DNA of 64,000 nucleotides from Butyrivibrio sp. (GTDB lineage: Bacteria; Bacillota; Clostridia; Lachnospirales; Lachnospiraceae): contig JBJENE010000014.1 of the NCBI GenBank assembly GCA_051880035.1, forward strand, positions 1 to 64,000, in the 5' to 3' direction. Below, one piece after another: positions 9,413 to 49,740 of this stretch. Below the pieces are notes generated by a model. That model saw only the letters and a list, made by a program, of their open reading frames with translations, was not told the origin of the DNA and did not search any database. Both the position numbers and the translations under genes were made by a program. How positions within the stretch are numbered: the stretch's first letter is position 1; each line of letters opens with the position of its first letter.

Positions 9413-10558
9413 TTATGCCTTACCGGCTTTAAGGCTTTTCTTCCCTGACAGCAAAAATGCCGCAATCGCAGAAGTAAACGGTACCGTAAGAATAATTCCC
9501 ATGGTACCGGCAATACCACGCATTATTTCAATTCCGATTGAATACATGTTTACAATCTGATGCATCTGATATGAATAGGAATAGATTATCATTATGGTAT
9601 TAATTGAACTTCCCACAAACGCAAGAATAAGGGTATTTGACATTGTACCAATCATATCTCTTCCCACATTCATGCCTGATTTAAAAAGTTTTTTAAATGT
9701 AAGGGTATTATCCACCTCACAAAGTTCATTAAGGGTAGTTGATACCGACATTGCCACATCCATTACCGCCCCCAGGGAAGCAATTAACATTCCGGAATAA
9801 AGCATATTGCTTACATCCAGTCTGGTCTGCTGCCCTATATATATCAGACTTTCTATTTCATCCACATTGTTCCCGTTAATATGTGCCGCTTTTCCGAAAA
9901 CAACCGAAATTATTCCGGCAACCACAACTCCGCATATTGTTCCCGCAATTGCCGAAGCGGATTTTTTACTTATGTCGGCTATCAGTATTATTGATACCAC
10001 TGATATAATAATTACCGAAATTACTGCCGCCCAAAACGGCGGGCAGCCGATGTACATAAGCGGAACATACATCATTATTATTACTATAAAAGTAAAAATA
10101 AGTGCCAGTATTGAATTAAATCCTTTTTTCTTCCCACCTATCAGCCACATCAGACCGAGAAAAAGTGCCGTTAACACCGCCATCTCTGTCTCGCGGTCAT
10201 AATTATATACGCTTCCCGAAACAGAGCCGTTATATTCGCTTACTTTGGCTATTACCTTTGTTCCCAGTTCGCAATGTGCTCCGTAAAGATATCCGTTCAT
10301 ACTCGTTGCAGGAATTGTCTGCCCTTTAAATGTCCCGGATTTAATAAGCAAAGTAACCCTCTGGGTGGTGCCGTCCGTTTCGCCGGCATCACCTTGAAGG
10401 TCACTGTTTTCCACTCCCGTTACTACAGCTTTGGCAAACTCCGTATTGTCGTCTGCCAAAAGCTGCACTTTAGTGATTCCTCTGTTGAAAACAATTATTG
10501 CTATTATAATTCCGAGTACGACAATATATTTGCCTGCATTCTGAATTATTCTTCGCAA
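9413..10558 (-). CDS. YibE/F-family polytopic membrane protein
   Basis: N-terminal TM, about 120-aa extracytoplasmic domain, then 7-8 TM helices; architecture typical of YibE/F. Confidence 0.55.
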   Translation of the reverse strand: MRRIIQNAGKYIVVLGIIIAIIVFNRGITKVQLLADDNTEFAKAVVTGVENSDLQGDAGETDGTTQRVTLLIKSGTFKGQTIPATSMNGYLYGAHCELGTKVIAKVSEYNGSVSGSVYNYDRETEMAVLTALFLGLMWLIGGKKKGFNSILALIFTFIVIIMMYVPLMYIGCPPFWAAVISVIIISVVSIILIADISKKSASAIAGTICGVVVAGIISVVFGKAAHINGNNVDEIESLIYIGQQTRLDVSNMLYSGMLIASLGAVMDVAMSVSTTLNELCEVDNTLTFKKLFKSGMNVGRDMIGTMSNTLILAFVGSSINTIMIIYSYSYQMHQIVNMYSIGIEIMRGIAGTMGIILTVPFTSAIAAFLLSGKKSLKAGKA

Positions 10559-12678
10559 TCGTTTTCCTTCTTTCTTCCTACTACTGTTATTGCCAGACCT
10601 GCGGCAAGCATTCCAATTGCAGGAACGATGATTTTAATTGAAGTATCTCCGGCATTAATATCATTTCCGCCTTCGGTTCCGTTGCCGCCTTCGGTTCCGT
10701 TGCCGCCTTCGTCTCCGTTGCCGCCTTCGGTTCCGTTACCGCCTTCGTCTCCGTTACCGCCTTCGTCCCCGTTACCGCCTTCGTCTTCGTTACCGCCTTC
10801 GTCTTCGTTACCGCCTTCGTCTCCGTTTTCGTCACCCGGGTCGGTTGACTTAAGTACAAGTTCTGAAATTGCAGTATTAACTGCTGCCTGAGCTTCTTTG
10901 ATTGTTGTTGATGATACAACCGGAACATCAAGACCGTCTAACTGAAGGTAGATTGTTTTATCAAGAATTGTTGAGTAGCCTCTCTTGAATCTGTTAGCTC
11001 CGTTATCACCGTTTGTGGCTCTGTCTGCAACAGAACCGTATCCGCTTACAGGGTCATCATCCGTATTGAATAATGTTGTAAAGATTTCAATTGCCGGATC
11101 TTCCGGTGTGGTATTTGCTTCAATAAGCTGTTTGAGATTATCTAATGCTGTTGTGAGTGCAGAAACACTGTCTTCTGTATATTTCTCGGTATCGATTACT
11201 TCAGCTTTTTCAACTGTTTCCTGTGCACTTTCATTTTCTGAAGTTTTAACGATTGTGAAATCATCAGCGTATTTTGCACCTGTATAATCGTATGTCTTAA
11301 TTGTCAGCTCTGTGTCTGAAAAGTCAATTGTTGAGAATGCCGGAAGGCATGCATTTGTTCTTTCAGCAATATAGTATGGTGTATAGTTGAGAAGGTTATA
11401 ATATTTAGAACCTGAGCCTGAGCCGGTTGAAATATACATTGTTCCTTCCGGATCTGTTACCGAATTTGAACTTAAGTCGTAATCAATCACATTACCGTCA
11501 AGTATCTGGTATGATCTTGAGTATGTATGATCATGCCCCGTAAGACATACATCAATGTCAAACTCATCCATGAGCGGTGCGAAAATTACTCTGTTTGTAG
11601 CTGCATCGGTATCTGCATGAGGTTCTCCTGAACCGTAGATATCGCTATGGAATATAACCACTTTCCATACTGCATCCGGATTGCTTTCGGTCGCTTTGGT
11701 AAGAAGCTGTCTATGCTCCTCGGCATTTCTGTTATTACTGTTAAGACTTATGAAAAGTACTTTACCATATGAAAAGTAGTAATCACATCCTGCTGCGGTT
11801 GCACCGAGATTATCCTCTGTATTAGGATTATTAAAATGTGCGGTATAATCTGAACCCTGGGTATCATGGTTACCTATTGTTGTGGCAACAGGCAGACTTC
11901 TTAAAACTGAAGAATAAAAATATCCTGCATACTCACTTTCCCTTGTTTTCTTATCATTGGATGATGAAGCTCCGCTTTTATCAATCTGGTCTCCTGCTGA
12001 GAGAAGAAATGCTGCGTCCGGATCGGTAATTACAGCCTGCTGCAATGTAAGATTCCAGTTATATGTATCCCTTGCCGCACTTGAATCTGTTGCTGTATTG
12101 TCATCGCTGCTTCCTGATGCACCAATCTGTGGATCTCCTGTAAGAATTACGGAAAAGCTGTCACTTGAACCGGTTTCGTATTTATACTCGGAAGACCATG
12201 TGGTTACTCCGCCTTCAACATAATTATCGGTGTATACATATCTGTATTCTTTGTTTTCCTGAAAATAATCTTTTATTGAAACCTTATTTGATGCAGCATA
12301 TGTACTTCCCTGCCAGTTTTCGGCTTCAATATCTGTGGCCGTTCCCACAAAAATCTTTGCCGCTGTCATCTTTCCGTACTCATATACTTTAACCGCAGGG
12401 GTTCCTTTTGTTTCTGAGTACCATGCAAAATTCAAATCATTTTCATCCTCGCCCGGAGTCAATGCGATTTTACCTGAGTCTGCACTTTCTCCTGCATTCC
12501 AGATGTTCGTTCTCCATGCCTGATAATCTGCGCTTCCGTCAGTATCACTCTTAAAAGTGCTTTCACCTGCATTATATTCGCCATAACCGAATGTAAATGT
12601 TGGAACTGCAGTTACGGCAAGCATTGATGCTGTCGCAATCATTGCAGCCTTTTTTACGAAGTTTCTGTTTTTCTTCAT
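10546..12678 (-). CDS. cell-surface calcineurin-like metallophosphoesterase with Gly/Asn/acidic repeat stalk and C-terminal TM anchor
   Basis: Signal peptide MKKNRNFVKKAAMIATASMLAVTA; phosphoesterase motifs GDQID, GNHD, GHDHTY; C-terminal (GGNGDE/GGNEDE)n repeats then IIVPAIGMLAAGLAITVVGRKK anchor. Confidence 0.75.
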   Translation of the reverse strand: MKKNRNFVKKAAMIATASMLAVTAVPTFTFGYGEYNAGESTFKSDTDGSADYQAWRTNIWNAGESADSGKIALTPGEDENDLNFAWYSETKGTPAVKVYEYGKMTAAKIFVGTATDIEAENWQGSTYAASNKVSIKDYFQENKEYRYVYTDNYVEGGVTTWSSEYKYETGSSDSFSVILTGDPQIGASGSSDDNTATDSSAARDTYNWNLTLQQAVITDPDAAFLLSAGDQIDKSGASSSNDKKTRESEYAGYFYSSVLRSLPVATTIGNHDTQGSDYTAHFNNPNTEDNLGATAAGCDYYFSYGKVLFISLNSNNRNAEEHRQLLTKATESNPDAVWKVVIFHSDIYGSGEPHADTDAATNRVIFAPLMDEFDIDVCLTGHDHTYSRSYQILDGNVIDYDLSSNSVTDPEGTMYISTGSGSGSKYYNLLNYTPYYIAERTNACLPAFSTIDFSDTELTIKTYDYTGAKYADDFTIVKTSENESAQETVEKAEVIDTEKYTEDSVSALTTALDNLKQLIEANTTPEDPAIEIFTTLFNTDDDPVSGYGSVADRATNGDNGANRFKRGYSTILDKTIYLQLDGLDVPVVSSTTIKEAQAAVNTAISELVLKSTDPGDENGDEGGNEDEGGNEDEGGNGDEGGNGDEGGNGTEGGNGDEGGNGTEGGNGTEGGNDINAGDTSIKIIVPAIGMLAAGLAITVVGRKKENDCEE
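10667..10830. repeat. about eight tandem 21-bp repeats (CCGCCTTCGGTTCCGTTG-like) encoding GGNG(D/T)EG heptads
   Basis: Direct visual periodicity in the sequence; the antisense 'ORF' 10274..10891 (PSVPLPPS repeats) is an artefact of this repeat. Confidence 0.8.
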
Positions 12679-25616: not shown

Positions 25617-26132
25617 TTAAAGTGGTAATTCGTAATACAGAAAATCAGTCCGGCCGGTATTTTCTGCATAAAGATTCTGCTTTCCCCGATACCGGAACCC
25701 AAGTTTTTCATACATATTCTGAGCCGGAGCGTTTGATGCCAGCGTATCAAGGCGGATTGCTTTCTTTCCTTTTTGGGTTGCCAGAGAAATGATTTCTGCC
25801 ATCATTCTTTTGGATGTACCTTTTCTCTGATATTCAGGGGTTACCGTAAAAATATGTAAGCAAGCCACCTCATCATCTTTCAGATTTTGACTCCATATAA
25901 CCTCATGATAATCCTCCCCCTGATACATTGTAATTGCTGTCATACCTGCAATATTTTGCCCATCCATAAACAAATACATTTCCTGTCCGTCTATATAAGA
26001 TTGTATCATTGCATCTGTAGGATGCTGTCCATAAATCCACCTGGCATGGACATTCATGTCTTTTGTATGCTCAATTACCTCTATATATTTCTCTCTGACA
26101 ATATCAAGATTGCCGGCTAAAACCAATTCCAT
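25617..26132 (-). CDS. GNAT-family N-acetyltransferase
   Basis: 171 aa; acetyl-CoA binding core ...QRKGTSKRMM... and YEKLGF; last gene of the TetR-MFS-APH-ANT-GNAT operon. Confidence 0.7.
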   Translation of the reverse strand: MELVLAGNLDIVREKYIEVIEHTKDMNVHARWIYGQHPTDAMIQSYIDGQEMYLFMDGQNIAGMTAITMYQGEDYHEVIWSQNLKDDEVACLHIFTVTPEYQRKGTSKRMMAEIISLATQKGKKAIRLDTLASNAPAQNMYEKLGFRYRGKQNLYAENTGRTDFLYYELPL

Positions 26133-26151
26133 ACTTTACCACTCTCCCATC

Positions 26152-26952
26152 TTATGCCTTTATCTCACCTACAAGATAGTCGCGCAATTTATTCAGCTCA
26201 CACTCCAAAAGTGTGTGTTCTTCACCTTCAAACCATATTTTCATTGCAAGCTCCGGCAGAAATTTCAAGTCCTCAGGAACATTCTTTATCATCCAGAGAC
26301 CGCCCTCATATTTTGACAATATTCTTTTTTCTTTCTTAAAGGATAAAATTCTTCCCAATATCAAAACATTGCTTGCCAAATATCTTGCATCATAATTATG
26401 AAAGTCATAATCATCAATATCAGCACTGATTGCCGACCAAAAATCCTCATCTGAGACATCCGCAAACACTTCCTGTATTTCTTCTCCATACAGTACTATA
26501 CCGCATTGCTTAATCAGTTTAATATAACTTGTTACATCCGCATCAGGGAATTCGTGGTCCGCCACATATACCTCCGTGTCCGGATTTTGAAATCTGTCCA
26601 GATATTTATCTGTCCAGAAATCGCTATAATGAAATACACAATTCCCCGGTGTTTTCCAATTTTTTGCATCAATCTTTTTCACGGCAGACATCTCAAGGGG
26701 ACGCGGTTTTCTGTCAATTTCTATTATCTCTCTTGCAATTTCAAGCTTCGTTGCCACATGAACAGAGTCCTTCACAACCACAAGTATGTCAATATCTCCT
26801 GAATCAGGATTAAAAGCATTTAGTGCAATTGAGCCGTGAAGATACACTCCGATTAAATCTTCTCCCAGATGTCTTTTCCATATATCCACAACATTGCTAA
26901 TCTGATTCACTATCTCTAATGGTAAATCTTTATATCCAAGTAAATTACTCAC
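26152..26952 (-). CDS. AadA/ANT(9)-like aminoglycoside nucleotidyltransferase family protein (NTase + DUF4111-like C-terminus)
   Basis: GTG start with GGAGG RBS; LIGVYLHGSIALNAFNPDSGDIDILVVV matches the GS-x9-DxD pol-beta NTase motif in the arrangement I recall for AadA/ANT(9); about 266 aa. Confidence 0.55.
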   Translation of the reverse strand: MSNLLGYKDLPLEIVNQISNVVDIWKRHLGEDLIGVYLHGSIALNAFNPDSGDIDILVVVKDSVHVATKLEIAREIIEIDRKPRPLEMSAVKKIDAKNWKTPGNCVFHYSDFWTDKYLDRFQNPDTEVYVADHEFPDADVTSYIKLIKQCGIVLYGEEIQEVFADVSDEDFWSAISADIDDYDFHNYDARYLASNVLILGRILSFKKEKRILSKYEGGLWMIKNVPEDLKFLPELAMKIWFEGEEHTLLECELNKLRDYLVGEIKA

Positions 26953-26985
26953 ACCATACCTCCGTCACCAAATCACACTATATAT

Positions 26986-27960
26986 TTAAAAATTTCCGGT
27001 TTTAAGCTTTTGTACCTCATGTGCAAACTCATCAAGCACCCACTCGTACATGTGAGGATCATCATATTCCCGATAACCGCGCTCCACCACCATTCCTAAT
27101 CGCTGCCAGATACGATATATCTGAATCCGAATCCTCTCGTTCTGTGTAAATTCCGTTTTACCATATCCTTTTAGAAAATTGGGATTGGGTGCATCTCCAA
27201 AATCATGAAAATCATGACTCAGCAAAGGATCTCCCCAAAGAACCGCCGCATAGTCAATCAGCCCTGTTAATTTACCGCAATTAATCATAAGATTACCATC
27301 CCATGTATCGGTATGTGCATACGACGGTATCGTTACTTCATCCAATTCTTTCGCAAATTTCCTAATCAACTTCCGCAGTTCATTCGGTTCAATCCCCGGG
27401 ATTGCAATATTCTTTTCTTCTGCATCCAAAAGAAGCCAGTCAAATATGAAATATACAAAATCACTGTTTTTCTCACAGTAGCTTTCCGGTATATTGGGAA
27501 TGCCAAAAACATCCGCCTCCAACGAACACATTTTATATGTAATATTTCCAATTTTTTCTTTTACTTCTGCCCTTTGACAATCTGTAATGTCCTTATTATG
27601 AGATAATGGTATTCCTTCCAGATAACTCATAAAGAAATACGGCACCGTGCATATTTCGCCACTGTCATCATAAAAGATTAATTTGGGCATTGGAATATCC
27701 AGTTTTTCATTAAAAAGTTTCAGCATTTCTGCTTCTGTCTGAATGTATTTTCTTTCATGGCGCATAATTTTTACATCTGTACCGGAAGCAATCTTTAGCA
27801 CCATTTTCTGCTCCGTGGTTTCCACAAGATACACCGCACTGCAAAAACCTCCGGACATCTTTTCAATCTGGATTACTGTGGTCTTTTTACCCATTGCCCG
27901 GTTTGTCATCTGCCGAATTACATCCTCGGAAATCCAGTTTTTGGTCACTGCATTCATCAT
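26986..27960 (-). CDS. APH/choline-kinase-family small-molecule phosphotransferase
   Basis: Brenner motif HTDTWDGNLMI and downstream IDYAAV...D; start assigned to the MMNAV ATG preceded by GGAGG (alternative upstream ATG at 27987). Confidence 0.65.
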   Translation of the reverse strand: MMNAVTKNWISEDVIRQMTNRAMGKKTTVIQIEKMSGGFCSAVYLVETTEQKMVLKIASGTDVKIMRHERKYIQTEAEMLKLFNEKLDIPMPKLIFYDDSGEICTVPYFFMSYLEGIPLSHNKDITDCQRAEVKEKIGNITYKMCSLEADVFGIPNIPESYCEKNSDFVYFIFDWLLLDAEEKNIAIPGIEPNELRKLIRKFAKELDEVTIPSYAHTDTWDGNLMINCGKLTGLIDYAAVLWGDPLLSHDFHDFGDAPNPNFLKGYGKTEFTQNERIRIQIYRIWQRLGMVVERGYREYDDPHMYEWVLDEFAHEVQKLKTGNF

Positions 27961-28022
27961 TATCGCTACCTCCGCTTCAAGTTTCATTATAGCATTAAGT
28001 ATCAGGAAATTACATACTTGAT

Positions 28023-29246
28023 TTACTGTGATAATTGCCGGATACTTTTTATTCGCAACATTATAACAGCTGTCACAATCAGAGAAACTCCCGAAAAAAT
28101 AATAACAACAGCAGCACCTCTTCCGACAGATGTGTCCAGTATACTGCCCATAAGGTCAGCCAAAATACCACCTGACGCATACGCCAGTACATATCCTATC
28201 TGGGAAAGAAAACCTATAAATCCCCATATTCTTCCCTGCAATTCATCCGGAATATTCGTTCTTACCAGATAATCCAAACAATTGTTGGCAAATGGGAGCA
28301 TTGCAAAAAACAAAAATCCAAATATGCATATAATATAGATATTTTCCCAAATTCCAAAACCAATCATAAATAATCCGCTCATGGCTAATGAAATTACCAG
28401 GGTCTGCACATATTTTTTCTTAATTCCCCGTATTCCAAGCAAAAGACTTGATATCAGCATTCCACACGCACAAACCGTCTCTCCGATTCCCAAAGTTTTT
28501 GAATCCGAAAAAGACAAGATGAGAGGTTCTGCCAATATCTGAAACACGCCCATAAAAAGAGTCATAACCGAGGAAACGATAATTAATAAGAAAACTCCCG
28601 TTTTGCTATGTACTGCGTGCCACCCCTCCCCAATACTGCTAAAAAAAGATTGTTTTGTTTCTACTTTTTTCGTCTGAATTCCTCTTTTTACAACTCCGGT
28701 AGAAATAACTGTTAAAACAAATGTACATATATCAATTACAAGCAGTAGTTTTACATCAAATACACTGAGCAATAATCCGGCCACTATCGGCGAAACCAGA
28801 TATCTGGCACTTCCCGCCAGACTTACTAATCCGTTTGCCTTAGAAAATTCTTCCTTAGTTAACAAATCAGAAACCGTTGCCCTGTAAGAAGGCTCCAGCA
28901 AAGAAGAAAACACAGAGCTTACAAAAACACCTATGCAAATCCGGGTAAGCGTTGCTTTGCCATTCATCATACATATTAAAATGTACAGAATACCAAAAGC
29001 AGAACATCCATCTCCGATCATCATTAAAAGCCTGCGATCATATCGGTCCGCCAATGTTCCTGCCGGCACACTTAACAACAATGTAGGCAAAAATCCTAAC
29101 AATGTGACGAGTGCCATACTTGCTGCACTTCCTGTCTGTCTAAATACATATACCCCTAACCCAAAACCGGTCAGCCCTCCGCCAATTGCGGAAATCAACT
29201 CTCCTGCCCACAGTAATAAAAATTTTCCAAAATTACTTTTTTTCAT
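28023..29246 (-). CDS. MFS efflux transporter
   Basis: 12-TM MFS; start MKKSNFGKF with GGAGA RBS; directly downstream of TetR. Confidence 0.75.
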   Translation of the reverse strand: MKKSNFGKFLLLWAGELISAIGGGLTGFGLGVYVFRQTGSAASMALVTLLGFLPTLLLSVPAGTLADRYDRRLLMMIGDGCSAFGILYILICMMNGKATLTRICIGVFVSSVFSSLLEPSYRATVSDLLTKEEFSKANGLVSLAGSARYLVSPIVAGLLLSVFDVKLLLVIDICTFVLTVISTGVVKRGIQTKKVETKQSFFSSIGEGWHAVHSKTGVFLLIIVSSVMTLFMGVFQILAEPLILSFSDSKTLGIGETVCACGMLISSLLLGIRGIKKKYVQTLVISLAMSGLFMIGFGIWENIYIICIFGFLFFAMLPFANNCLDYLVRTNIPDELQGRIWGFIGFLSQIGYVLAYASGGILADLMGSILDTSVGRGAAVVIIFSGVSLIVTAVIMLRIKSIRQLSQ

Positions 29247-29332
29247 CTTTTTCTCCATTTCCTTTCTACAGACTGACTGTCTGTCGGTTGTATTTAAAAA
29301 TAAAAGAAACTTAAAAGTCTCTTTTATGGCAC

Positions 29333-29959
29333 TTATTTGCAAAATATAGGTTTCATGGCATCCAACAATGCACCTGCTTCCATACCAAGAACCCGCTCCG
29401 TATGATAAACAAATCCCTCAATCTTTCTTTGCTCTTCTTCCTCAATGTACTGCTTCGTACTATCAAAGGTTATGTACGAATATGTCATAATCATATCAAC
29501 CGCTTCTGCCGGATAATCCGTATGCATAATTCCCTGCTTAATTCCATCCTCAACAATCTTTGTAATCAAAATATTTACTCTTCCAAGCAGACGTTCTTCC
29601 AGTTTCTGATGCAACAGTGCATTTTGCGGTTTATGCACCTGTTCCATAATCATATCTCCCAATTCGTTATCCACATTTAAGGATAAGATTGTTCGCGTAA
29701 GCCTTTCCAATACAGGAACCGAATCATCTAATGCAATAACCGCTGCCTTAGAAACAATCTGATTGGTAACCCGCTCAATCATTCCATCCAGAATATCCTC
29801 TTTGGACTTGAAGTGATAATATAATGTTCCCCTGGCAATACCAATTTCGTTCAAAATATCATTCGTGCTGGTCCTATCGAATCCTTTTGTACAAAACAAT
29901 CTTTCAGCAACGTCTAATATTTCATTTCTACGTTCTTCTGCATCTTTAATTACTCTCAT
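29333..29959 (-). CDS. TetR-family transcriptional regulator
   Basis: MRVIKDAEERRNEILDVAERLFCTKGFDRTSTNDILNEIGIARGTLYYHF HTH; GGAGG RBS. Confidence 0.8.
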   Translation of the reverse strand: MRVIKDAEERRNEILDVAERLFCTKGFDRTSTNDILNEIGIARGTLYYHFKSKEDILDGMIERVTNQIVSKAAVIALDDSVPVLERLTRTILSLNVDNELGDMIMEQVHKPQNALLHQKLEERLLGRVNILITKIVEDGIKQGIMHTDYPAEAVDMIMTYSYITFDSTKQYIEEEEQRKIEGFVYHTERVLGMEAGALLDAMKPIFCK

Positions 29960-30145
29960 AGATTCGCCTCCAACCGACAACCTGTCTATACACAATATAT
30001 CATGTGAGTAAAAATAATACAAGACGAAATAATTTCTATAATTGCAAAAATAATACATAATAACCACAAATTAGTGTTGATAATCGTGGTCTTGAGTCAA
30101 TATAACGCACCGTAATTCCCTTTTCCGGTGGAAGGCATACTTGGG

Positions 30146-30164
30146 GATGACATTTAGATAACAT
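30146..30164. repeat. direct repeat A (GATGACATTTAGATAACAT) at the 3' boundary of the HEPN/MNT cassette
   Basis: 17/19 identical to 31187..31205; overlaps the HEPN stop codon. Confidence 0.6.
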
Positions 30165-30555
30165 CTTGCACTGTCAGATATCCTTTAATGGCATTTGAAA
30201 ATTCTTCCGCTCTGACAATCTGCTTTTGTGCTTCTTCACATGAAGCAATGTAAAAGTCTAAATAATCGGCTTTCTCTCGGTTAATAGAAGCCTGAGTGAT
30301 TATCTTGGAAAGATTCTTCGAGAAAATTCCTTCTTTCACATAATTCTGATTAAAAAAAGCGATTACGCCACTGTGCTTACTGCTGTCATATCCTTGCAGA
30401 GCATTAACAGCCCTGATTGCATGAAAAATTGAATAATATGCTCTATTCAATGCATTTTTATATCTGCCGTTTTCAAACATCAACTTAGCATCTTCCAGAT
30501 TTTCAAGGCTTGTTTCAAAGCGGTATTTTGATAGTTCTTTTATGCGCTCTTCCAT
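30154..30555 (-). CDS. HEPN-domain protein (toxin component of HEPN/MNT module)
   Basis: Rx4-6H HEPN motif RAYYSIFHA; 133 aa; 16-nt overlap with the upstream MNT gene. Confidence 0.7.
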   Translation of the reverse strand: MEERIKELSKYRFETSLENLEDAKLMFENGRYKNALNRAYYSIFHAIRAVNALQGYDSSKHSGVIAFFNQNYVKEGIFSKNLSKIITQASINREKADYLDFYIASCEEAQKQIVRAEEFSNAIKGYLTVQDVI

Positions 30556-31091
30556 ATAACAATTCCCTCTTTTTCAACTTTTTTGTAAAAAGGCAAAGTT
30601 GTTTTCCATTCCTTAAATTCACGCTTCTCAATTGATATAACAGATATAGTAACACCTAAATCCAACTGATAATCAACCACAATATCTGTCATCCTGTCAT
30701 ATTGTTCTTCTGTCTGAGCATCCGTTAAAACTAATGCCATATCAACATCTGATTCATCTGTCTCCTGCCCTCTGGCATACGATCCATACAGTATTACTTC
30801 TTCAATATATCTGCCATAGACTTCACCAAACGCATCACACATTTTACATAATTTCTTGAGCATTTCAGGATGCTTACTATTAAACCTTACACGTTGTCTC
30901 CAGTTTCGGTATCCGCCACTTCTAATTCTTCTGTCCTTAGGATATTCAGTTCCCTTTGGTATAAGCCATTGATTACCAATTTTTTCACCTTCTAAGGTAC
31001 CCCTCATCAACATTCGTCTGATATTTCCCGGATCTTTTCCGTAGATTTCTGCGTATTGTGACACTGTATAATACTCATTCATATCTTTCAT
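30540..31091 (-). CDS. minimal nucleotidyltransferase (MNT) with N-terminal HTH, antitoxin component
   Basis: LYGSYARGQETDESDVDMALVL (GS...DxD) pol-beta NTase motif; N-terminal HTH-like segment; overlaps the HEPN gene. Confidence 0.7.
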   Translation of the reverse strand: MKDMNEYYTVSQYAEIYGKDPGNIRRMLMRGTLEGEKIGNQWLIPKGTEYPKDRRIRSGGYRNWRQRVRFNSKHPEMLKKLCKMCDAFGEVYGRYIEEVILYGSYARGQETDESDVDMALVLTDAQTEEQYDRMTDIVVDYQLDLGVTISVISIEKREFKEWKTTLPFYKKVEKEGIVIWKSA

Positions 31092-31186
31092 CTCCCTTTC
31101 AATTAAACATTAACACTATATCGTGTAAATGTCAAACATGTTTCCGGATGAAACCGATTAGATTTTATGTCCATCGCAACCTTATG

Positions 31187-31205
31187 GAGAACATTTAGAT
31201 AACAT
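31187..31205. repeat. direct repeat B (GAGAACATTTAGATAACAT) upstream of the HEPN/MNT cassette promoter
   Basis: Pairs with 30146..30164; both are also preceded by a TTTCCGG(T/A)TG(G/A)AA motif (30121 and 31141). Confidence 0.6.
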
Positions 31206-31372
31206 AAACCCTACGGGAACCGTCCCATGCACTATAATTTTCTATTGCTGTAACCACCATCTTTCATACCGCAATCCGACAAAGAATATTATTTCATGTT
31301 ATTTTACTTTTTCTACCTTTCTTTAAATAAACCTCTTACATTATCTCATCAGATGGTTCTACAGGCAAACAT

Positions 31373-31475: not shown

Positions 31476-32420
31476 TTAGTGGGTGTTCTTTCCTGAGCCG
31501 TTACAACGATAGCACATAGCCCAAAGTGTACCACCACATCTTGGGCAAGGAAGACCGCCTAATCTGCCTTCACCGTTACAATCTTCGCATACCTGATATC
31601 CGGCGCCATCTCCGCAACGAACACATGGGGTCTTTCCTTCACCATGGCAAGCCCAGCATTTTCCATCGTCCTGATTTGCATCTAAGCCGGAGCCTCCACA
31701 ACTGTCACAGGTACTGAAGCCTTCACCGTTGCAAAGTGTACAGGTTGTTTTTCCCTCGCCGGTACACTTATCACATACGGTCCACTCATTGCCATCCAAG
31801 TAGGTGGTTCCGTTACATCCGTCACATACTATGACACCGCTTCCATAACAAAGGTCGCAGGTATCATCAACAACTTCACCTTCCATTATATCTGCAACAA
31901 TAGGTGCATTCGGGAAATCTTCTTCGATTAATGCCTGCTGTACGCCATCCTTTACTTCCAGAGCCTCATCTAAAAGCTCCTGGCCTGTATGCTCAGCATC
32001 CATGATGGTAAGGTTAACCGGCTTTTCATCCTGCATATAGCCTGCATCCGTAGCTGCCTTTACCATTTCTTTTGCAACTTCTTCAAGTTCCTTGCCCTCA
32101 ACCTCAAGATTTCCATAGGCAGTCTCGGCATCGTCATTGTTACATACAATCTCAATAACCTTACCATCCTCATCTGTCAGGATATCAGCATCAGGGTTGA
32201 TGGAAACTTTGATTCTCGTCGTATAATTCTTATCTGCAGTATTGTCCGGTGCTGCTGATTCTGTTTCGCTCTGCGTTTCCTGTTCATTCGTGTCTTGTTC
32301 CTGCGTCTGCTGTGCAGGGGTTGTTGCATCCCCGTTATTTGCAGTTTTTTTCTCTGCACACGCAGTGAGAGAAGCAATCAGCATCAAGGCAACCAATAAG
32401 ATTGATAATCTGGATTTCAT
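31476..32420 (-). CDS. lipoprotein with acidic linker and about ten DnaJ-type CxxCxGxG zinc-finger repeats
   Basis: Lipobox LTAC after the signal peptide; C-terminal CDLCYGSG, CDGCNG, CDKCTGEG, CTLCNGEG, CDSCGGSG, CWACHGEG, CVRCGDG, CEDCNGEG, CPRCGG, CYRCNGSG. Confidence 0.6.
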   Translation of the reverse strand: MKSRLSILLVALMLIASLTACAEKKTANNGDATTPAQQTQEQDTNEQETQSETESAAPDNTADKNYTTRIKVSINPDADILTDEDGKVIEIVCNNDDAETAYGNLEVEGKELEEVAKEMVKAATDAGYMQDEKPVNLTIMDAEHTGQELLDEALEVKDGVQQALIEEDFPNAPIVADIMEGEVVDDTCDLCYGSGVIVCDGCNGTTYLDGNEWTVCDKCTGEGKTTCTLCNGEGFSTCDSCGGSGLDANQDDGKCWACHGEGKTPCVRCGDGAGYQVCEDCNGEGRLGGLPCPRCGGTLWAMCYRCNGSGKNTH

Positions 32421-32534: not shown

Positions 32535-34244
32535 TTATTGAATTTTTATCCTGTTTGCCTTGTATTGAACTGACATATTTATTCCCAAAAAAATCCACAT
32601 ATAAGGTGATACTGTAACCATACTGTCATTAAGCATACTGAATATGCAAAATGCAATTACCGAAACAAATGTTGCATGCAATATCCAATTATCATTTTTC
32701 TTATACTTAAATCTATTTATAATGCATTGCGCCAATATATAAATTACAATTCCACAAAGTGCCAGAGTTCCAAGTATACCAATATCCATGCAGTATTGCA
32801 GAATAATATTATGTGGACGGTTGACAATTACTTTATGTGTTCCATGTATCTTCATAAGACCGACATAATCATACTGGTCATAATTATATATATAATTTCC
32901 CGGTCCTTTTCCAATCAATATTACCTCTTTTAGCTTTGGCAATGTACGAATCCAAATATATCCCCTTCCCGTAAATGCACTATCATATTTGTTATATGTA
33001 TATTCTTCGCTTATACTGTCAATAGGGACAGCATCAACTCCAACGCCTTTAAACTCTCTATTAATAATATAAAAATCAAGAGTATCTTTATATCCAAGTT
33101 CAATCTTCACATACACAGTGCCTGCATTTTCAATAACTGAAAATTCTATTTTCACATTCTTATATGCTTCATCATTAAATACAAACCATCCATCCTCATT
33201 GTTGGCATCCATTATATTATCATCAGAATCATAAAACGCAATATTCTCATTACATACAATCGAAAATTTGCTCTCATTTCCATATATGGTAAGTTTATTT
33301 CCTTCCATATCTATTTTCTTTAATTCATATATGTCATTTACATTTTCTTCAAATGAATCGCCATTTGATGCACTAACATCAATTAATGCTCCAAGTTTTC
33401 CACCGGAAATACCATTTACAACCAATAGAATTACAGACATGGCGACAGCTAATACTATAAGCTCCTTTATTTTGCACTTTATTGTTTTGATTTCACAAAT
33501 CATCATTGCAATAATGATGGCTATTTGCAGATAAAACACAAGTGTTGATTTAGAAACAAGAATGCAAAAAACAATACCTATATTAATCAATATACCTGCA
33601 ATACAACTAATTCTATTCTTTGCATGCAGCCAATACTCAAAAGCAAACGGAAGCAACATACAGCAAAAACAGCCATAATAATTAGAATTATCAAATGTAA
33701 GTTTAACTCTGTTTACACTTTCAAGTTTTTCCCGGTTTCCTATCCACAAGGTGGCAATCGGTATATCAAAAAATTCAATTATTGACATAACTATAATAAC
33801 TGTCATTAAAATAACAACTGTCTTTTTTAATATATCTAAGATTTTATTCATATAGAAATAATTGTATGAAATGAAAAACAACACCAAATAACTTAAAAGT
33901 ACAGCTAAGCTTTCAAACTCTGTATTATAATTTTGAAATTCATTTCCATAATCTGCCGAAAGAACTTGTGACAGAACCGCACATATTACAAATATTGCCG
34001 CCATAATCCATAAAGCTTTGTTCTTATCCCTTAATGGATTGTTTTTAATAATATTATCGGGAAAGATGTTTTCGCCTATAAACCAAGACAGACAGAATAC
34101 TGCCATCAGCATCACCATTTTTTCCTTAATATGTATATCAGGAATTAATGGGTAAATAAGTATAAATATACATATACTGTATGGCACTACATATTTGTAT
34201 TTGGGCATTTCGTCTGATAATTTTACTTTTTTATGTTTTTTCAT
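32535..34244 (-). CDS. O-antigen ligase/polymerase-like (Wzy_C-type) membrane protein with about 200-aa inserted extracytoplasmic domain
   Basis: N-terminal TM block, large soluble insert, then RGYIW...GKGPGNY...PHNIILQYCMDIGILG, resembling the ligase GxGxGxF / HN..L....G motifs; very AT-rich gene. Confidence 0.5.
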   Translation of the reverse strand: MKKHKKVKLSDEMPKYKYVVPYSICIFILIYPLIPDIHIKEKMVMLMAVFCLSWFIGENIFPDNIIKNNPLRDKNKALWIMAAIFVICAVLSQVLSADYGNEFQNYNTEFESLAVLLSYLVLFFISYNYFYMNKILDILKKTVVILMTVIIVMSIIEFFDIPIATLWIGNREKLESVNRVKLTFDNSNYYGCFCCMLLPFAFEYWLHAKNRISCIAGILINIGIVFCILVSKSTLVFYLQIAIIIAMMICEIKTIKCKIKELIVLAVAMSVILLVVNGISGGKLGALIDVSASNGDSFEENVNDIYELKKIDMEGNKLTIYGNESKFSIVCNENIAFYDSDDNIMDANNEDGWFVFNDEAYKNVKIEFSVIENAGTVYVKIELGYKDTLDFYIINREFKGVGVDAVPIDSISEEYTYNKYDSAFTGRGYIWIRTLPKLKEVILIGKGPGNYIYNYDQYDYVGLMKIHGTHKVIVNRPHNIILQYCMDIGILGTLALCGIVIYILAQCIINRFKYKKNDNWILHATFVSVIAFCIFSMLNDSMVTVSPYMWIFLGINMSVQYKANRIKIQ

Positions 34245-34288
34245 GCTTATTCAATCTCTTTTGTCATTTTTAATTATTATTATATAAA

Positions 34289-34320
34289 AAGCAGATGATA
34301 AAATCAACATTTTACCATCT
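34289..34320 (-). terminator. terminator after the 701-aa surface protein gene
   Basis: Minus strand GCAGATGGTAAAATGTTGATTTTATCATCTGC followed by TTTTT. Confidence 0.5.
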
Positions 34321-34356
34321 GCCTAATATGAATTAATAAGTATCTTTACCCACTGA

Positions 34357-36462
34357 TTATTCAGTTACTTTTTTCTTAGTTGCAACGACTGCAAATGCAC
34401 CAATCATTGTAAACATTGCAATGATACAAATAGCAATATTTGAATTGTAACCGGCTGCAGGGTCATCGTCTGACGGTTTATTGTCTGCCGGTTTATTATC
34501 TGCAGTAAACAGACTATCGCTGATTATGATTGCATACTCTGATGCATGTGTAAACTTAAATCCTGCTGTACCATCTTCAGCTATCTTTACACCTTCAATA
34601 AACTCCAAAGCACCTGTTTCCGGATTATAATAAAAGAGATTTGCATATTTACCGCTATTTTCTGTTCCAAGATTCAGCTTAAACTCTGCTTTAAATCCAA
34701 AATCACCTGTATGTTCAATTGAAAGTTCAACTACTGTTCCTTCAAGTTTAACTTTTTCAATTGCTGTCTGCGGAATAACACCTTCTACCATATCTACAGT
34801 TAAATCAATAACTTCAGGTATTGTTCCCGTAATGTCACTTCCCTTAATTGTCCAGCTTGCCCCACCTTCTGATTTAATAACAAGAGTCACATTCTTTTCT
34901 TTTACTGCCACAAGAACGTCTTTTGTAATAACTATATTTTCAACGCCGGCATCAATTTCAACCGTTCCGTTCTCTTCAGCTGTTTCGATTTGTGAACATA
35001 TCCGCTCACTTAATGTTGATTCTTTTATTGTTGATTTTCTTATTGCTCCGTACAAGCGTCCATCGTCTGTATATGCATATGTAATAAAAACCCCTGTTTC
35101 TTCTATATAATCACAAATTATTTTTTCTGTACTTAAAATTACTTTTCCTTCAGAATCACGTACTACTGACCCTTCTTCATTATTAAAAATTAACCAATCA
35201 TCACCTATATATACATTATCTGTGTCAAGCAATTCTGCTTTATCAAGTGAATAGTCATCATCCTTATTTAATGCATAATAACACTTTACTCTGTCCTCTC
35301 CCCCGTTAGTCCAGTAGCTAAGATATATATATACCCTATTTGCATCTGCTGCAAATGGATATACCCATAAACCGTCTCCTTCACCCAATTCTAACAAAGT
35401 ATTAAAATATTCACGCAGTTGGGCGTACGTATAAATTGCATTTCCATCTTTAGAATAAATTCCGCCTTCACCATCTTCATATACAAAATCTATATCATCA
35501 TTTCCGTCTGACATATTCGATTCTTCTACAATAGGTGTACACTCTTCTTCTGAAACTTCTTCCAAAGTATCATATGATAGTAAATACTTATCGTTTTCGT
35601 ATCCTCCATGATACACTACTTCTACCTCAAAAGCTTCCTCATAATCAGGATTTATATTAATATAATATCCTGAGTTTTCAACATTTATGTTTTTTTCTTT
35701 CTTATTAAGATCAGAATCTATACAGATAATGGTATTGCCTTTTATGAGCAATAAATAATCACCTAAGATATCAACCTCATAATCAAAAAGACCTCCAAGT
35801 ATAATTTTATCTTTCTCATTAAATTCATGGTCAAACAGAATCAAATCACTTGTAAAATCCATATGTCCACGTTTAATACAATAATTTCCGCCAAATTCTG
35901 CACAAATTCCCCAAAAATATTCTATATTTTCTATAACATCTTCTTTAACAATTTTTTCTTCCTTGTCGATAACATTATATTTGGTGCCATCATTTACAAG
36001 ATAATAATTATTATCAAATTGATCTACATATGTATATCTGTTATCGCCATCACCTATCCATGTAAGATCTTCTGACATAATCGCTTCTGAACCATCTTCA
36101 CGAAGACATTCCATGTACTTGATAAAATCGTCACCTGAGACATTATAATAACCGGTATATCTAACATACTTTACAGTTCCGTCAGAATTTTTATTACTGA
36201 TTTCCGTAATATTACCTTTGCTGTCAATGATTGAAATACTGTCTTCTGCTGTGAGTCTTTCATCTCCCCTTTCTGTAGCCATGACAACAGAACCATTACT
36301 AAACTTATAATAATACTTATACTCATTCTCCAAAAGTACCTCAACATTGTCTTCCGGTTCATCAGCAGCATATATAACAGGACTTGAAATAAAACTTCCT
36401 GCTGCAATAATTAGTGCAACTGCAGCTGCCAATGCTTTTTTAATACTTCTACGCATCTTCAT
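34357..36462 (-). CDS. large secreted protein with C-terminal TM anchor (cell-surface protein, unknown function)
   Basis: Signal peptide ...AAVALIIAAGSFISSPVIYAADE; C-terminal IAICIIAMFTMIGAFAVVATKKK; no enzymatic motifs seen. Confidence 0.5.
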   Translation of the reverse strand: MKMRRSIKKALAAAVALIIAAGSFISSPVIYAADEPEDNVEVLLENEYKYYYKFSNGSVVMATERGDERLTAEDSISIIDSKGNITEISNKNSDGTVKYVRYTGYYNVSGDDFIKYMECLREDGSEAIMSEDLTWIGDGDNRYTYVDQFDNNYYLVNDGTKYNVIDKEEKIVKEDVIENIEYFWGICAEFGGNYCIKRGHMDFTSDLILFDHEFNEKDKIILGGLFDYEVDILGDYLLLIKGNTIICIDSDLNKKEKNINVENSGYYININPDYEEAFEVEVVYHGGYENDKYLLSYDTLEEVSEEECTPIVEESNMSDGNDDIDFVYEDGEGGIYSKDGNAIYTYAQLREYFNTLLELGEGDGLWVYPFAADANRVYIYLSYWTNGGEDRVKCYYALNKDDDYSLDKAELLDTDNVYIGDDWLIFNNEEGSVVRDSEGKVILSTEKIICDYIEETGVFITYAYTDDGRLYGAIRKSTIKESTLSERICSQIETAEENGTVEIDAGVENIVITKDVLVAVKEKNVTLVIKSEGGASWTIKGSDITGTIPEVIDLTVDMVEGVIPQTAIEKVKLEGTVVELSIEHTGDFGFKAEFKLNLGTENSGKYANLFYYNPETGALEFIEGVKIAEDGTAGFKFTHASEYAIIISDSLFTADNKPADNKPSDDDPAAGYNSNIAICIIAMFTMIGAFAVVATKKKVTE

Positions 36463-36636
36463 TCCTTCTTTCTTTTGAAATTTATAAAAAAATTAATTTT
36501 TTTAGCTTCAAAATTATTTAGTATACAGAACCATTATAACATGATATATTTCATTTTTCAAATTATTATTATGAGAATTTCAAGTCAGCATACAAAAAAC
36601 ATCTAATTCATATTAATAGCATATTATCTATTTTAA

Positions 36637-49515: not shown

Positions 49516-49571
49516 AAAGTACATGTCCATATATACCCTGTGCCTCAACTAAAGCACAAAGTCATTAATGT

Positions 49572-49680
49572 CATCTTCTTCCATCCAGACTATACTGTCG
49601 GTACCGGAGTCTCACCGGTTCATGCTTAACGCTCGCGGACTATACCGCCGATTGGGAATTGCACCCTGCCCTGAAGATAT
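49572..49680 (-). ncRNA. FMN riboswitch (RFN element) aptamer
   Basis: Minus strand ...TCTTCAGGGCAGGGTGCAATTCCCAATCGGCGGTATAGTCCGCGAGCG...AACCGGTGAGACTCCGGTACCGACAGTATAGTCTGGATGGAAGAAGATGA matches conserved RFN segments (GGGCAGGGTGAAATTCCC, CGGCGGTA, CCGACAGT...GTCTGGATG) with P1 TCTTC/GAAGA. Confidence 0.85.
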
Positions 49681-49740
49681 TTCGTTATTTTTCATCACGG
49701 TATTATAATAGTGCCATTAATCATGTATGTCAATACTAAT

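Follow-up and report, generated by a model that had tools for sequence, protein, structure and literature searches.

A strain-variable HEPN-MNT toxin-antitoxin module with an HTH-fused antitoxin, and short direct repeats near its edges, in a rumen Lachnospiraceae species

Toxin-antitoxin (TA) pairs are carried as discrete cassettes by Xer-dependent pdif modules, IMEX elements and integron cassettes, which use short recombination sites and enzymes encoded elsewhere. The closest described relatives of the pair analyzed here are the type VII HepT/MntA systems of Shewanella (SO_3166/3165; PMC7641770, PMC4621449) and the HEPN-MNT system of Legionella (PMC11586414), in which, as at our locus, adjacent and overlapping genes are arranged with MNT before HEPN. 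These systems share with our pair a minimal nucleotidyltransferase bearing GS..RG and SDxD motifs and an HEPN protein bearing Rx4-6H, and nucleotidylylation of the toxin is expected. The closest solved pair is the HEPN+NTase complex 9xbd, the NTase chain of which has no HTH. With respect to mobility, restriction-modification units that insert with a long target duplication (Furuta, Abe & Kobayashi 2010, PMC2853133) resemble our locus in being small addiction-type units without a recombinase, accompanied by direct repeats and polymorphic among strains; in those cases the repeat aligns to a single copy in the empty genome (PMC2853133).

We analyzed an HEPN-MNT pair located near the middle of the window, i.e. 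the whole 64,000-nt stretch of DNA; a Logan contig identical to the source contig was also present. A previous sequence-only reading had described the pair as a discrete cassette of about 1 kb bounded by direct repeats. All genes in the neighbourhood of the module lie on the minus strand, in the order Wzy-like, RsgI/DnaJ-like, MNT, HEPN, TetR, MFS and APH/ANT/GNAT-like (Table 1). Other neighbours within ~10 kb encode a GGDEF-EAL protein, two unknown proteins and PPDK. A profile scan covering ~10 kb around the module found no integrase, transposase or recombinase, which over this range agrees with the earlier statement that the window holds no integrase or transposase.

Table 1. Features of the HEPN-MNT locus and its surroundings (window positions)
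Feature	Positions	Strand	Remarks
Empty-lineage deletion, 3.5 kb	33117-36627		truncates Wzy
Wzy-like polymerase	32535-34244	minus	
RsgI/DnaJ-like lipoprotein	31476-32420	minus	RsgI_M and DnaJ-type CxxCxGxG repeats
Strain-variable segment, 1,212 bp	30114-31325	minus	present here, absent in 11 related contigs; 3-bp ATT microhomology
Extra DNA at the 5' side of the variable segment, 187 nt	31139-31325	minus	repeat copy 2 ends its 21-codon ORF (MVVTAIENYSAWDGSRRVYVI, then stop)
Repeat copy 2	31176-31205 (exact core 31191-31205)		gene orientation ATGTTATCTAAATGTTCTCCATAAGGTTGC; upstream of the -35 hexamer by ~52-55 nt; not part of the conserved core
Conserved core module (promoter, MNT, HEPN), ~0.98 kb	31138 to ~30158	minus	blastn homology to relatives
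Module promoter	31107-31135	minus	-35 TTGACA (31135-31130), 17-nt spacer, TG-extended -10 TAATGT (31112-31107)
MNT antitoxin gene, 180 aa from M4	30540-31082	minus	Pfam Polbeta, NTP_transf_2, HTH_17
HEPN toxin gene, 133 aa	30154-30555	minus	Pfam PF05168, E=1.1e-19
Repeat copy 1	30135-30164 (exact core 30150-30164)		gene orientation ATGTTATCTAAATGTCATCCCCAAGTATGC; last HEPN codons, stop and 19 nt downstream
TetR	29333-29959	minus	
MFS transporter	28023-29246	minus	
Empty-lineage deletion, 187 bp	28244-28430		inside MFS
APH-, ANT-, GNAT-like genes	beyond the MFS transporter in gene order	minus	

The two genes constitute a genuine two-gene HEPN-MNT TA module of a subfamily found widely among Lachnospiraceae of gut and rumen. 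The HEPN protein contains R38-x6-H45 (NRAYYSIFH) and a conserved REKADY motif; R38-AYYSIF-H45 was kept in 8 of 10 family members, the histidine being replaced by D in L102 and L103, and REK(A/S)DY was invariant in the family alignment. Its closest solved structure was the HEPN chain of 9xbd (E=3e-10). The MNT protein combines an N-terminal HTH_17/excisionase-type domain with a minimal nucleotidyltransferase domain (GSYARG...SDVD); the catalytic motif YGSYARGQETDESDVDMALV is present, and G100, S101, G105, S111, D112 and D114 were invariant in 48 homologues. Translation of MNT most likely begins at M4 (31082), because this codon follows a GGGAG ribosome-binding site by 9 nt, the gene on a public contig encodes 180 aa, and nearly all of the 658 homologues have this length. 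The co-oriented genes overlap by 16 nt and share a single upstream promoter. The sequence-only reading had called the pair from an HTH- and NTase-bearing MNT and an Rx4-6H HEPN, and the Pfam domains, catalytic motifs and overlap found here all bear out this call.

In function, the module belongs to a known kind of HEPN-MNT TA, its antitoxin being fused to an HTH, and it is a relative of type VII HepT/MntA, not an equivalog. The HEPN protein matches PF05168 (UPF0332) rather than the DUF86 domain of HepT and had no NCBIfam match, and the MNT protein scored 36 bits with the NCBIfam model MntA_antitoxin, below the 60-bit cutoff for the curated MntA equivalog. Moreover, unlike type VII antitoxins, this MNT has an extra N-terminal HTH_17 domain and is accompanied by a conserved palindromic putative operator.

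The module promoter had been proposed as TTGACA-17-TAATGT, and it is both present and conserved in all relatives. The pattern TTGACAwTTACACGA-N3-CGTGTTAATGT was kept in 16 family loci in unrelated contexts, down to 43% protein identity, and within the promoter spacer, at 31113-31126, there is an operator-like palindrome, ACACG-N5-(C/A)GTGT. Because the promoter is conserved together with this palindrome, the most economical reading is that the N-terminal HTH of MNT would repress the module's own promoter through the spacer palindrome, which we consider most likely. As judged from knowledge of the type VII HepT/MntA family, the nucleotidyltransferase domain would most likely neutralise the HEPN RNase by nucleotidylylation. 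In relatives L086-92, L093, L094 and L104, HEPN has repeatedly decayed whereas MNT has stayed intact, a pattern consistent with HEPN being the toxin.

Homologues of the HTH-MNT protein (658, most of them 180 aa) were abundant in gut and rumen metagenomes. MNT and HEPN also occur together in L083, L095, L097-L100, L102, L103 and L179, and the pair or its remnants were found in at least six other genomic contexts, for example between a Na/Ca exchanger gene and ribF (L083-85), adjoining hipA (L093), and within a mobile-element remnant that holds integrase and serine-recombinase fragments (L094). The blastn homology between our locus and L179, L083-85, L086-92, L093, L094, L095 and L097-L099 always started at 31135-31141 and ended at 30153-30175, i.e. 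at the -35 hexamer on one side and in the last HEPN codons on the other. Since these edges coincide across relatives in unrelated contexts, they define a conserved core of ~0.98 kb. The DNA of the variable segment outside this core had no homologue in any fetched locus or in the plasmid, phage or IMG/VR collections, and searches of those three collections with the segment, the family or the repeat yielded no match.

We found the empty state of the locus through the RsgI/DnaJ-like protein, which has a 97%-identical variant (P0121) and a cluster mate (P0141) carried on 25 public contigs. The empty-site set comprised L174 and all ten of the listed P0141 contigs (L189-L198), from at least 10 different samples other than our own. 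In these 11 contigs, the flanks of which are ~98% identical to ours, the RsgI/DnaJ-like gene is joined directly to TetR: the gene is followed by 305 nt and then TetR, with neither MNT nor HEPN. All 11 share the junction GAGGTTTATT/ACGGTGCG (in shorter forms, GGTTTATT/ACGG or GGTTTATT-ACGGTGCG). The view of the pair as a discrete, strain-variable cassette is thus supported by 11 contigs from at least 10 samples, and the module is accessory DNA in this species. A metagenome scan with the RsgI/DnaJ-like protein gave no match. A second route to the empty site, through TetR relatives at 80 GTDB loci, was abandoned: the TetR-MFS arrangement is conserved, homology stops at ~30002, and no synteny was found upstream.

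The limits of the variable segment bear directly on the role of the repeats. Besides both copies, the segment includes 120 nt of DNA upstream of copy 2, the 52 nt that separate this copy from the promoter, and 36 nt on the downstream side of copy 1, so that the repeats, which had been taken to bound the cassette, are exceeded on both sides. Furthermore, the exact 15-mer shared by the two copies occurs zero times in the 11 empty contigs; the proposed search for empty sites with a single repeat copy therefore succeeded in finding empty sites, but these carry no copy. Because both repeats lie inside the segment and the empty sites have none, they do not represent a target-site duplication or an att pair belonging to this polymorphism, and because the junction shows only 3 bp of microhomology, the polymorphism arose by illegitimate recombination. 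We consider it rather probable that this is a HEPN-MNT TA module that is strain-variable through illegitimate recombination, and that the repeats are a passive scar and not the working ends of a mobile cassette.

The repeats were examined at the sequence level. The exact 15-mer ACATTTAGATAACAT is unique to its two positions in the window, and the similarity extends without gaps to 24 of 30 positions. The repeat had been described as 19 bp long (30146-30164 and 31187-31205); the 15-mer within it is indeed exact, but the 19-mer has two mismatches. A related motif, TTTCCGG-TG-AA, said to precede both copies, was not significant, as it was reached by 475 of 2000 shuffles. No dyad symmetry or inverted repeat was found in the repeat at either copy. 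In shuffles of the module's own 200-nt flanks, a 15-mer match between them was never obtained (0/500); however, 10% of composition-preserving shuffled windows hold some exact 15-mer direct pair 100-1500 nt apart, so that by itself the exact match carries only modest significance. In register, the extension matches 9 of 15 adjacent positions (p ~0.01 by our own estimate). Because of this extension and the placement of the copies at the module edges, chance is unlikely, and we regard the repeat as real and ~30 nt long, with a small but not negligible residual probability of coincidence. Beyond 30 nt, similarity was marginal and depended on the scoring scheme, anchored gapped alignments giving p ~0.02 in one scheme and non-significant values in two others.

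The two copies appear to differ in origin. Across the family, HEPN C-termini read (D/G)(I/V)(L/I) and then either stop or continue in a short tail; the final codons of our HEPN, D-V-I-stop, fall within copy 1, where they are encoded by the first 11 nt of the repeat core. Given this family-wide ending, copy 1 is native HEPN coding sequence, which disfavours a plain target-site duplication, since these codons would otherwise have to come from the target. Upstream of the promoter, copy 2 would then be a short duplicate of the 3' end of HEPN. Most likely, the repeats would be a passive scar of an earlier rearrangement, such as partial duplication, or crossover at short homology in an earlier genomic context, and this scar would now travel with the module. 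At the protein level, no significant match to the HEPN profile was found in 31139-31325, and the interpretation of copy 2 as a HEPN relic was rejected, the 21-codon ORF (ending ...VYVI and a stop) giving 1.2 bits with the family HMM, a score equalled by 20 of 200 shuffles. A rolling-circle or greater-than-unit-length copy model was also discarded, because it predicts a terminal redundancy of 171 nt and only ~30 nt are present.

We further compared the repeats with the ends of known mobile units. The earlier proposal of a target duplication or of site-specific recombination by the repeats is disfavoured by the absence of any copy in the empty sites, by the native HEPN ending in copy 1, by the lack of dyad symmetry and by the absence of the repeat beside other family members. 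In contrast to the restriction-modification units with long target duplication, the indel here is larger than the inter-repeat interval. A transposon-like or long target-site duplication was rejected because there are zero copies in the 11 empty sites and only the 3-bp ATT at the junction, and an att element of a tyrosine or serine recombinase was rejected because the segment holds only MNT and HEPN, without inverted arms, and the core is missing from the empty sites. Unlike pdif and IMEX elements, the locus has no 28-bp two-armed dif-like site, and its repeat is unique to the locus. By eye, TTATGTTATCT agrees at 9 of 11 positions with TTATGTAAACT, which we take to be one arm of the B. subtilis dif site; the Xer dif/pdif assignment was rejected, as there is no second arm, no symmetry and no GC-skew switch. 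Likewise, unlike integron cassettes, the locus shows no attC-like imperfect palindrome with GTTRRRY cores and no integron integrase; GTTATCT and AGATAAC are off the core consensus and lack hairpin symmetry, and integron attC was therefore also rejected.

Flanking direct repeats were found in 3 of 15 family loci (the window, L093 and L094) and in none of the other 12; the closest relative context (L086/L087) has none. The repeats of L093 (13 nt, 3/500 shuffles) and L094 (11 nt, 7/500 shuffles) lie at offsets similar to those in the window. However, L093 has four local copies of ATGTCAG(G), of which its repeat is one, and the upstream copy in L094 falls within the integrase remnant. With only 3 of 15 loci, none in L086/L087 and a locally four-copy motif in L093, a family-wide rule of flanking repeats was rejected.

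The alternative that survives best, which we nevertheless consider unlikely, treats the 15-bp core as att-like. A circle of ~1,041 bp comprising the core, the 52 nt, the promoter, MNT and HEPN, with the junction CAGTGCAAG-ATGTTATCTAAATGT-TCTCCATAAGG, would have integrated at this locus by means of a host enzyme, either site-specifically or in a Campbell-type event at short homology, and a single illegitimate deletion would afterwards have removed the cassette from the empty lineage, along with both cores and 156 nt of flank. An exact core with weakly similar flanks is what attL and attR would show, copy 1 lies at the 3' edge of the conserved module, and the similar offsets in L093 and L094 could hint at a recurrent mechanism, although the L093 repeats belong to the local four-copy motif. 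The subsequent loss is made plausible by two certain deletions within 6 kb in the empty lineage, both with 1-nt microhomology. However, a deletion between the 15-bp repeats would be easier and would leave one copy, and no strain with the single-copy site expected of such an integration (GGGTTT-ATGTTATCTAAATGT-CATCCCCAAG) was found among the 11 empty sites. The lack of a recombinase nearby and of dyad symmetry in the repeat also argues against it, as do the 52 nt separating copy 2 from the -35 hexamer, which are common to no relative.

Our preferred reading, of a scar inside an illegitimately recombined segment, is itself compatible with either direction of change. The window differs from the empty contigs at 36-41 of 1,880 flanking positions, compared with 0-14 differences among the empty contigs themselves, which indicates two lineages without nesting. 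Since the empty lineage has other certain deletions nearby (Table 1), with 1-nt microhomology junctions, and one empty strain shows an additional deletion of 122 bp, deletion is about as plausible as insertion. Insertion is favoured by the expectation that a deletion would use the 15-bp repeats and leave one copy. Loss of an active TA module is counter-selected, which we also took as an argument for insertion. Taken together, a foreign 1.2-kb insertion here and a loss in the sister lineage appear about evenly balanced; if the empty sites are secondary, they provide no test of the origin of the repeats. Orthologues from a sister species (L175, L177 and L178; 82% amino-acid identity) were considered as an outgroup and set aside, as their downstream genes are different and they cannot polarise the indel.

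That the repeat is a chance match of AT-rich sequences, without history or function, seems improbable to us. The window contains several dispersed chance 15-mers, similarity outside the 30 nt is not significant, and the frequency of such pairs in shuffled windows speaks for coincidence, whereas the shuffles of the module's own flanks, the in-register extension and the position of the copies at or near both edges of the conserved core speak against it. A bolder proposal, to which we would give little credence, is that the module is a recombinase-less, TA-only mobile element of ~1 kb that circularises and integrates through a 15-bp core over the toxin stop codon by host recombination, that the L093 and L094 repeats are scars of the same kind, and that the empty sites are secondary deletions. 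Very improbable, too, is that the repeat is a functional cis element, for example a pair of direct half-sites (ATGTYMTC-N3-ATGTYMTC) to which the excisionase-type HTH of MNT, or some other protein, would bind. In its favour, direct half-sites of 8 nt occur twice in each copy, 11 nt apart, the window has this pattern nowhere else, and the HTH is of the excisionase/MerR type. Against it, neither the repeat nor the half-site pattern is present in 76 kb of family loci, the repeat does not lie beside other family members, the family-conserved element is the promoter-spacer palindrome and not the half-site motif, and the stretch upstream of the promoter in which copy 2 lies has no counterpart in any relative.

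The locus is a clean case, resolved at the sequence level, of a TA module that is accessory DNA and varies among strains of an uncultured rumen Lachnospiraceae species; its variable segment, its conserved core and its flanking repeats can be separated from one another. It also suggests caution, in that short direct repeats do not, merely by surrounding a selfish gene pair, demonstrate a target duplication or att sites, and a check of empty sites is needed. If the TA minicircle reading were true, it would be relevant to the long-standing question of how TA systems move between genomes. The more useful by-product is the HTH-fused MNT subfamily, which, with its very well conserved putative operator, is a candidate for studies of HEPN-MNT autoregulation.

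With respect to base composition, GC skew showed no switch at the cassette locus. The low GC content of the cassette was dismissed as a mark of foreign origin, 0.36 against 0.39 for the window being too weak a difference. The GC content of the cassette had been described as visibly lower than that of its neighbours; a slight drop relative to the window does exist, but it is marginal, for while TetR (0.38), MFS (0.39) and the RsgI-like gene (0.47) lie above the cassette, the Wzy gene is lower still, at 0.30.

The promoter of the MNT antitoxin gene, together with its palindromic operator, is strongly conserved throughout the HTH-MNT subfamily, even in members with protein identity as low as 43%. 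Such subfamily-wide conservation suggests that the HTH_17 domain fused to MNT mediates autorepression by binding the palindrome. 9xbd, the nearest solved HEPN+NTase complex, lacks the HTH_17 domain fused to the MNT of the window. The promoter–operator pattern (see the table) was also observed upstream of MNT at the relative loci L083, L086, L093–L106 and L179.

Among relatives, the HEPN toxin has decayed repeatedly while the MNT antitoxin has been kept intact. Internal deletions have shortened HEPN to 52–59 aa in three independent relatives (L086–L092, L094 and L104), and HEPN is wholly missing from L093. In the distant members L102 and L103, Asp replaces His in the R-x6-H motif of HEPN (NRAYYAAFDAMR), although REKSDY is retained; given this substitution, it is uncertain which of the motifs acts as the catalytic one in this HEPN subfamily. 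The HEPN-less MNT gene of L093 is surrounded by same-strand copies of ATGTCAG(G), located upstream of a T2SSE/pilus-like operon, and this set may represent a local regulatory or repeat element.

Comparison of the window with the contigs of the cassette-free lineage (L189–L198) showed that the region around the toxin–antitoxin site is decaying in that lineage. A 3.5-kb deletion has removed a 701-aa ORF of unknown function together with two-thirds of Wzy, counted from its N-terminus, and a stretch of 187 bp is absent from within the MFS gene; at both deletion junctions the microhomology is only 1 nt. One contig, L191, carries an additional 122-bp deletion between 9-nt repeats. In two others (L189, 1–2062, and L190, 1–2000), homology to the window ends at ~37870, beside the PPDK gene, and the sequence beyond instead encodes a large serine recombinase of 559 aa (Resolvase+Recombinase), a possible mobile-element insertion or rearrangement ~6.5 kb from the toxin–antitoxin site.

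The TetR–MFS pair on one side of the site is kept in many Lachnospiraceae, with differing upstream contexts, and the APH-like, AadA-like and GNAT genes that follow it in the window look like an aminoglycoside-modifying enzyme cluster. On the other side, the RsgI_M/DnaJ-type lipoprotein gene is conspicuous for its GC content (0.47 versus a window average of 0.39). Elsewhere in the window, a tandem array of 18-nt units codes for a six-residue peptide repeat.

Features of the window and of the relative locus L093
Feature	Location	Details
MNT promoter with palindromic operator	window 31107-31135	TTGACAwTTACACGA-N3-CGTGTTAATGT
TetR, MFS, then APH-like phosphotransferase, AadA-like nucleotidyltransferase and GNAT acetyltransferase genes	window 25617-29959	
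ATGTCAG(G) motif	L093 2835-3768	4 copies, all same strand; within 930 nt
3.5-kb deletion, cassette-free lineage	window 33117-36627	
187-bp deletion, cassette-free lineage	window 28244-28430	
122-bp deletion, L191	window 29056-29177	
18-nt tandem array	window 10667-10813	CCGCCTTCGGTTCCGTTG-like units; within 710-aa ORF (10546-12678, minus strand)
FMN riboswitch	window 49569-49682	minus strand; RF00050, 112 bits
CxxCxGxG-coding repeat units	window 31567-31829	24-nt family, 4 copies; in RsgI_M/DnaJ-type lipoprotein gene
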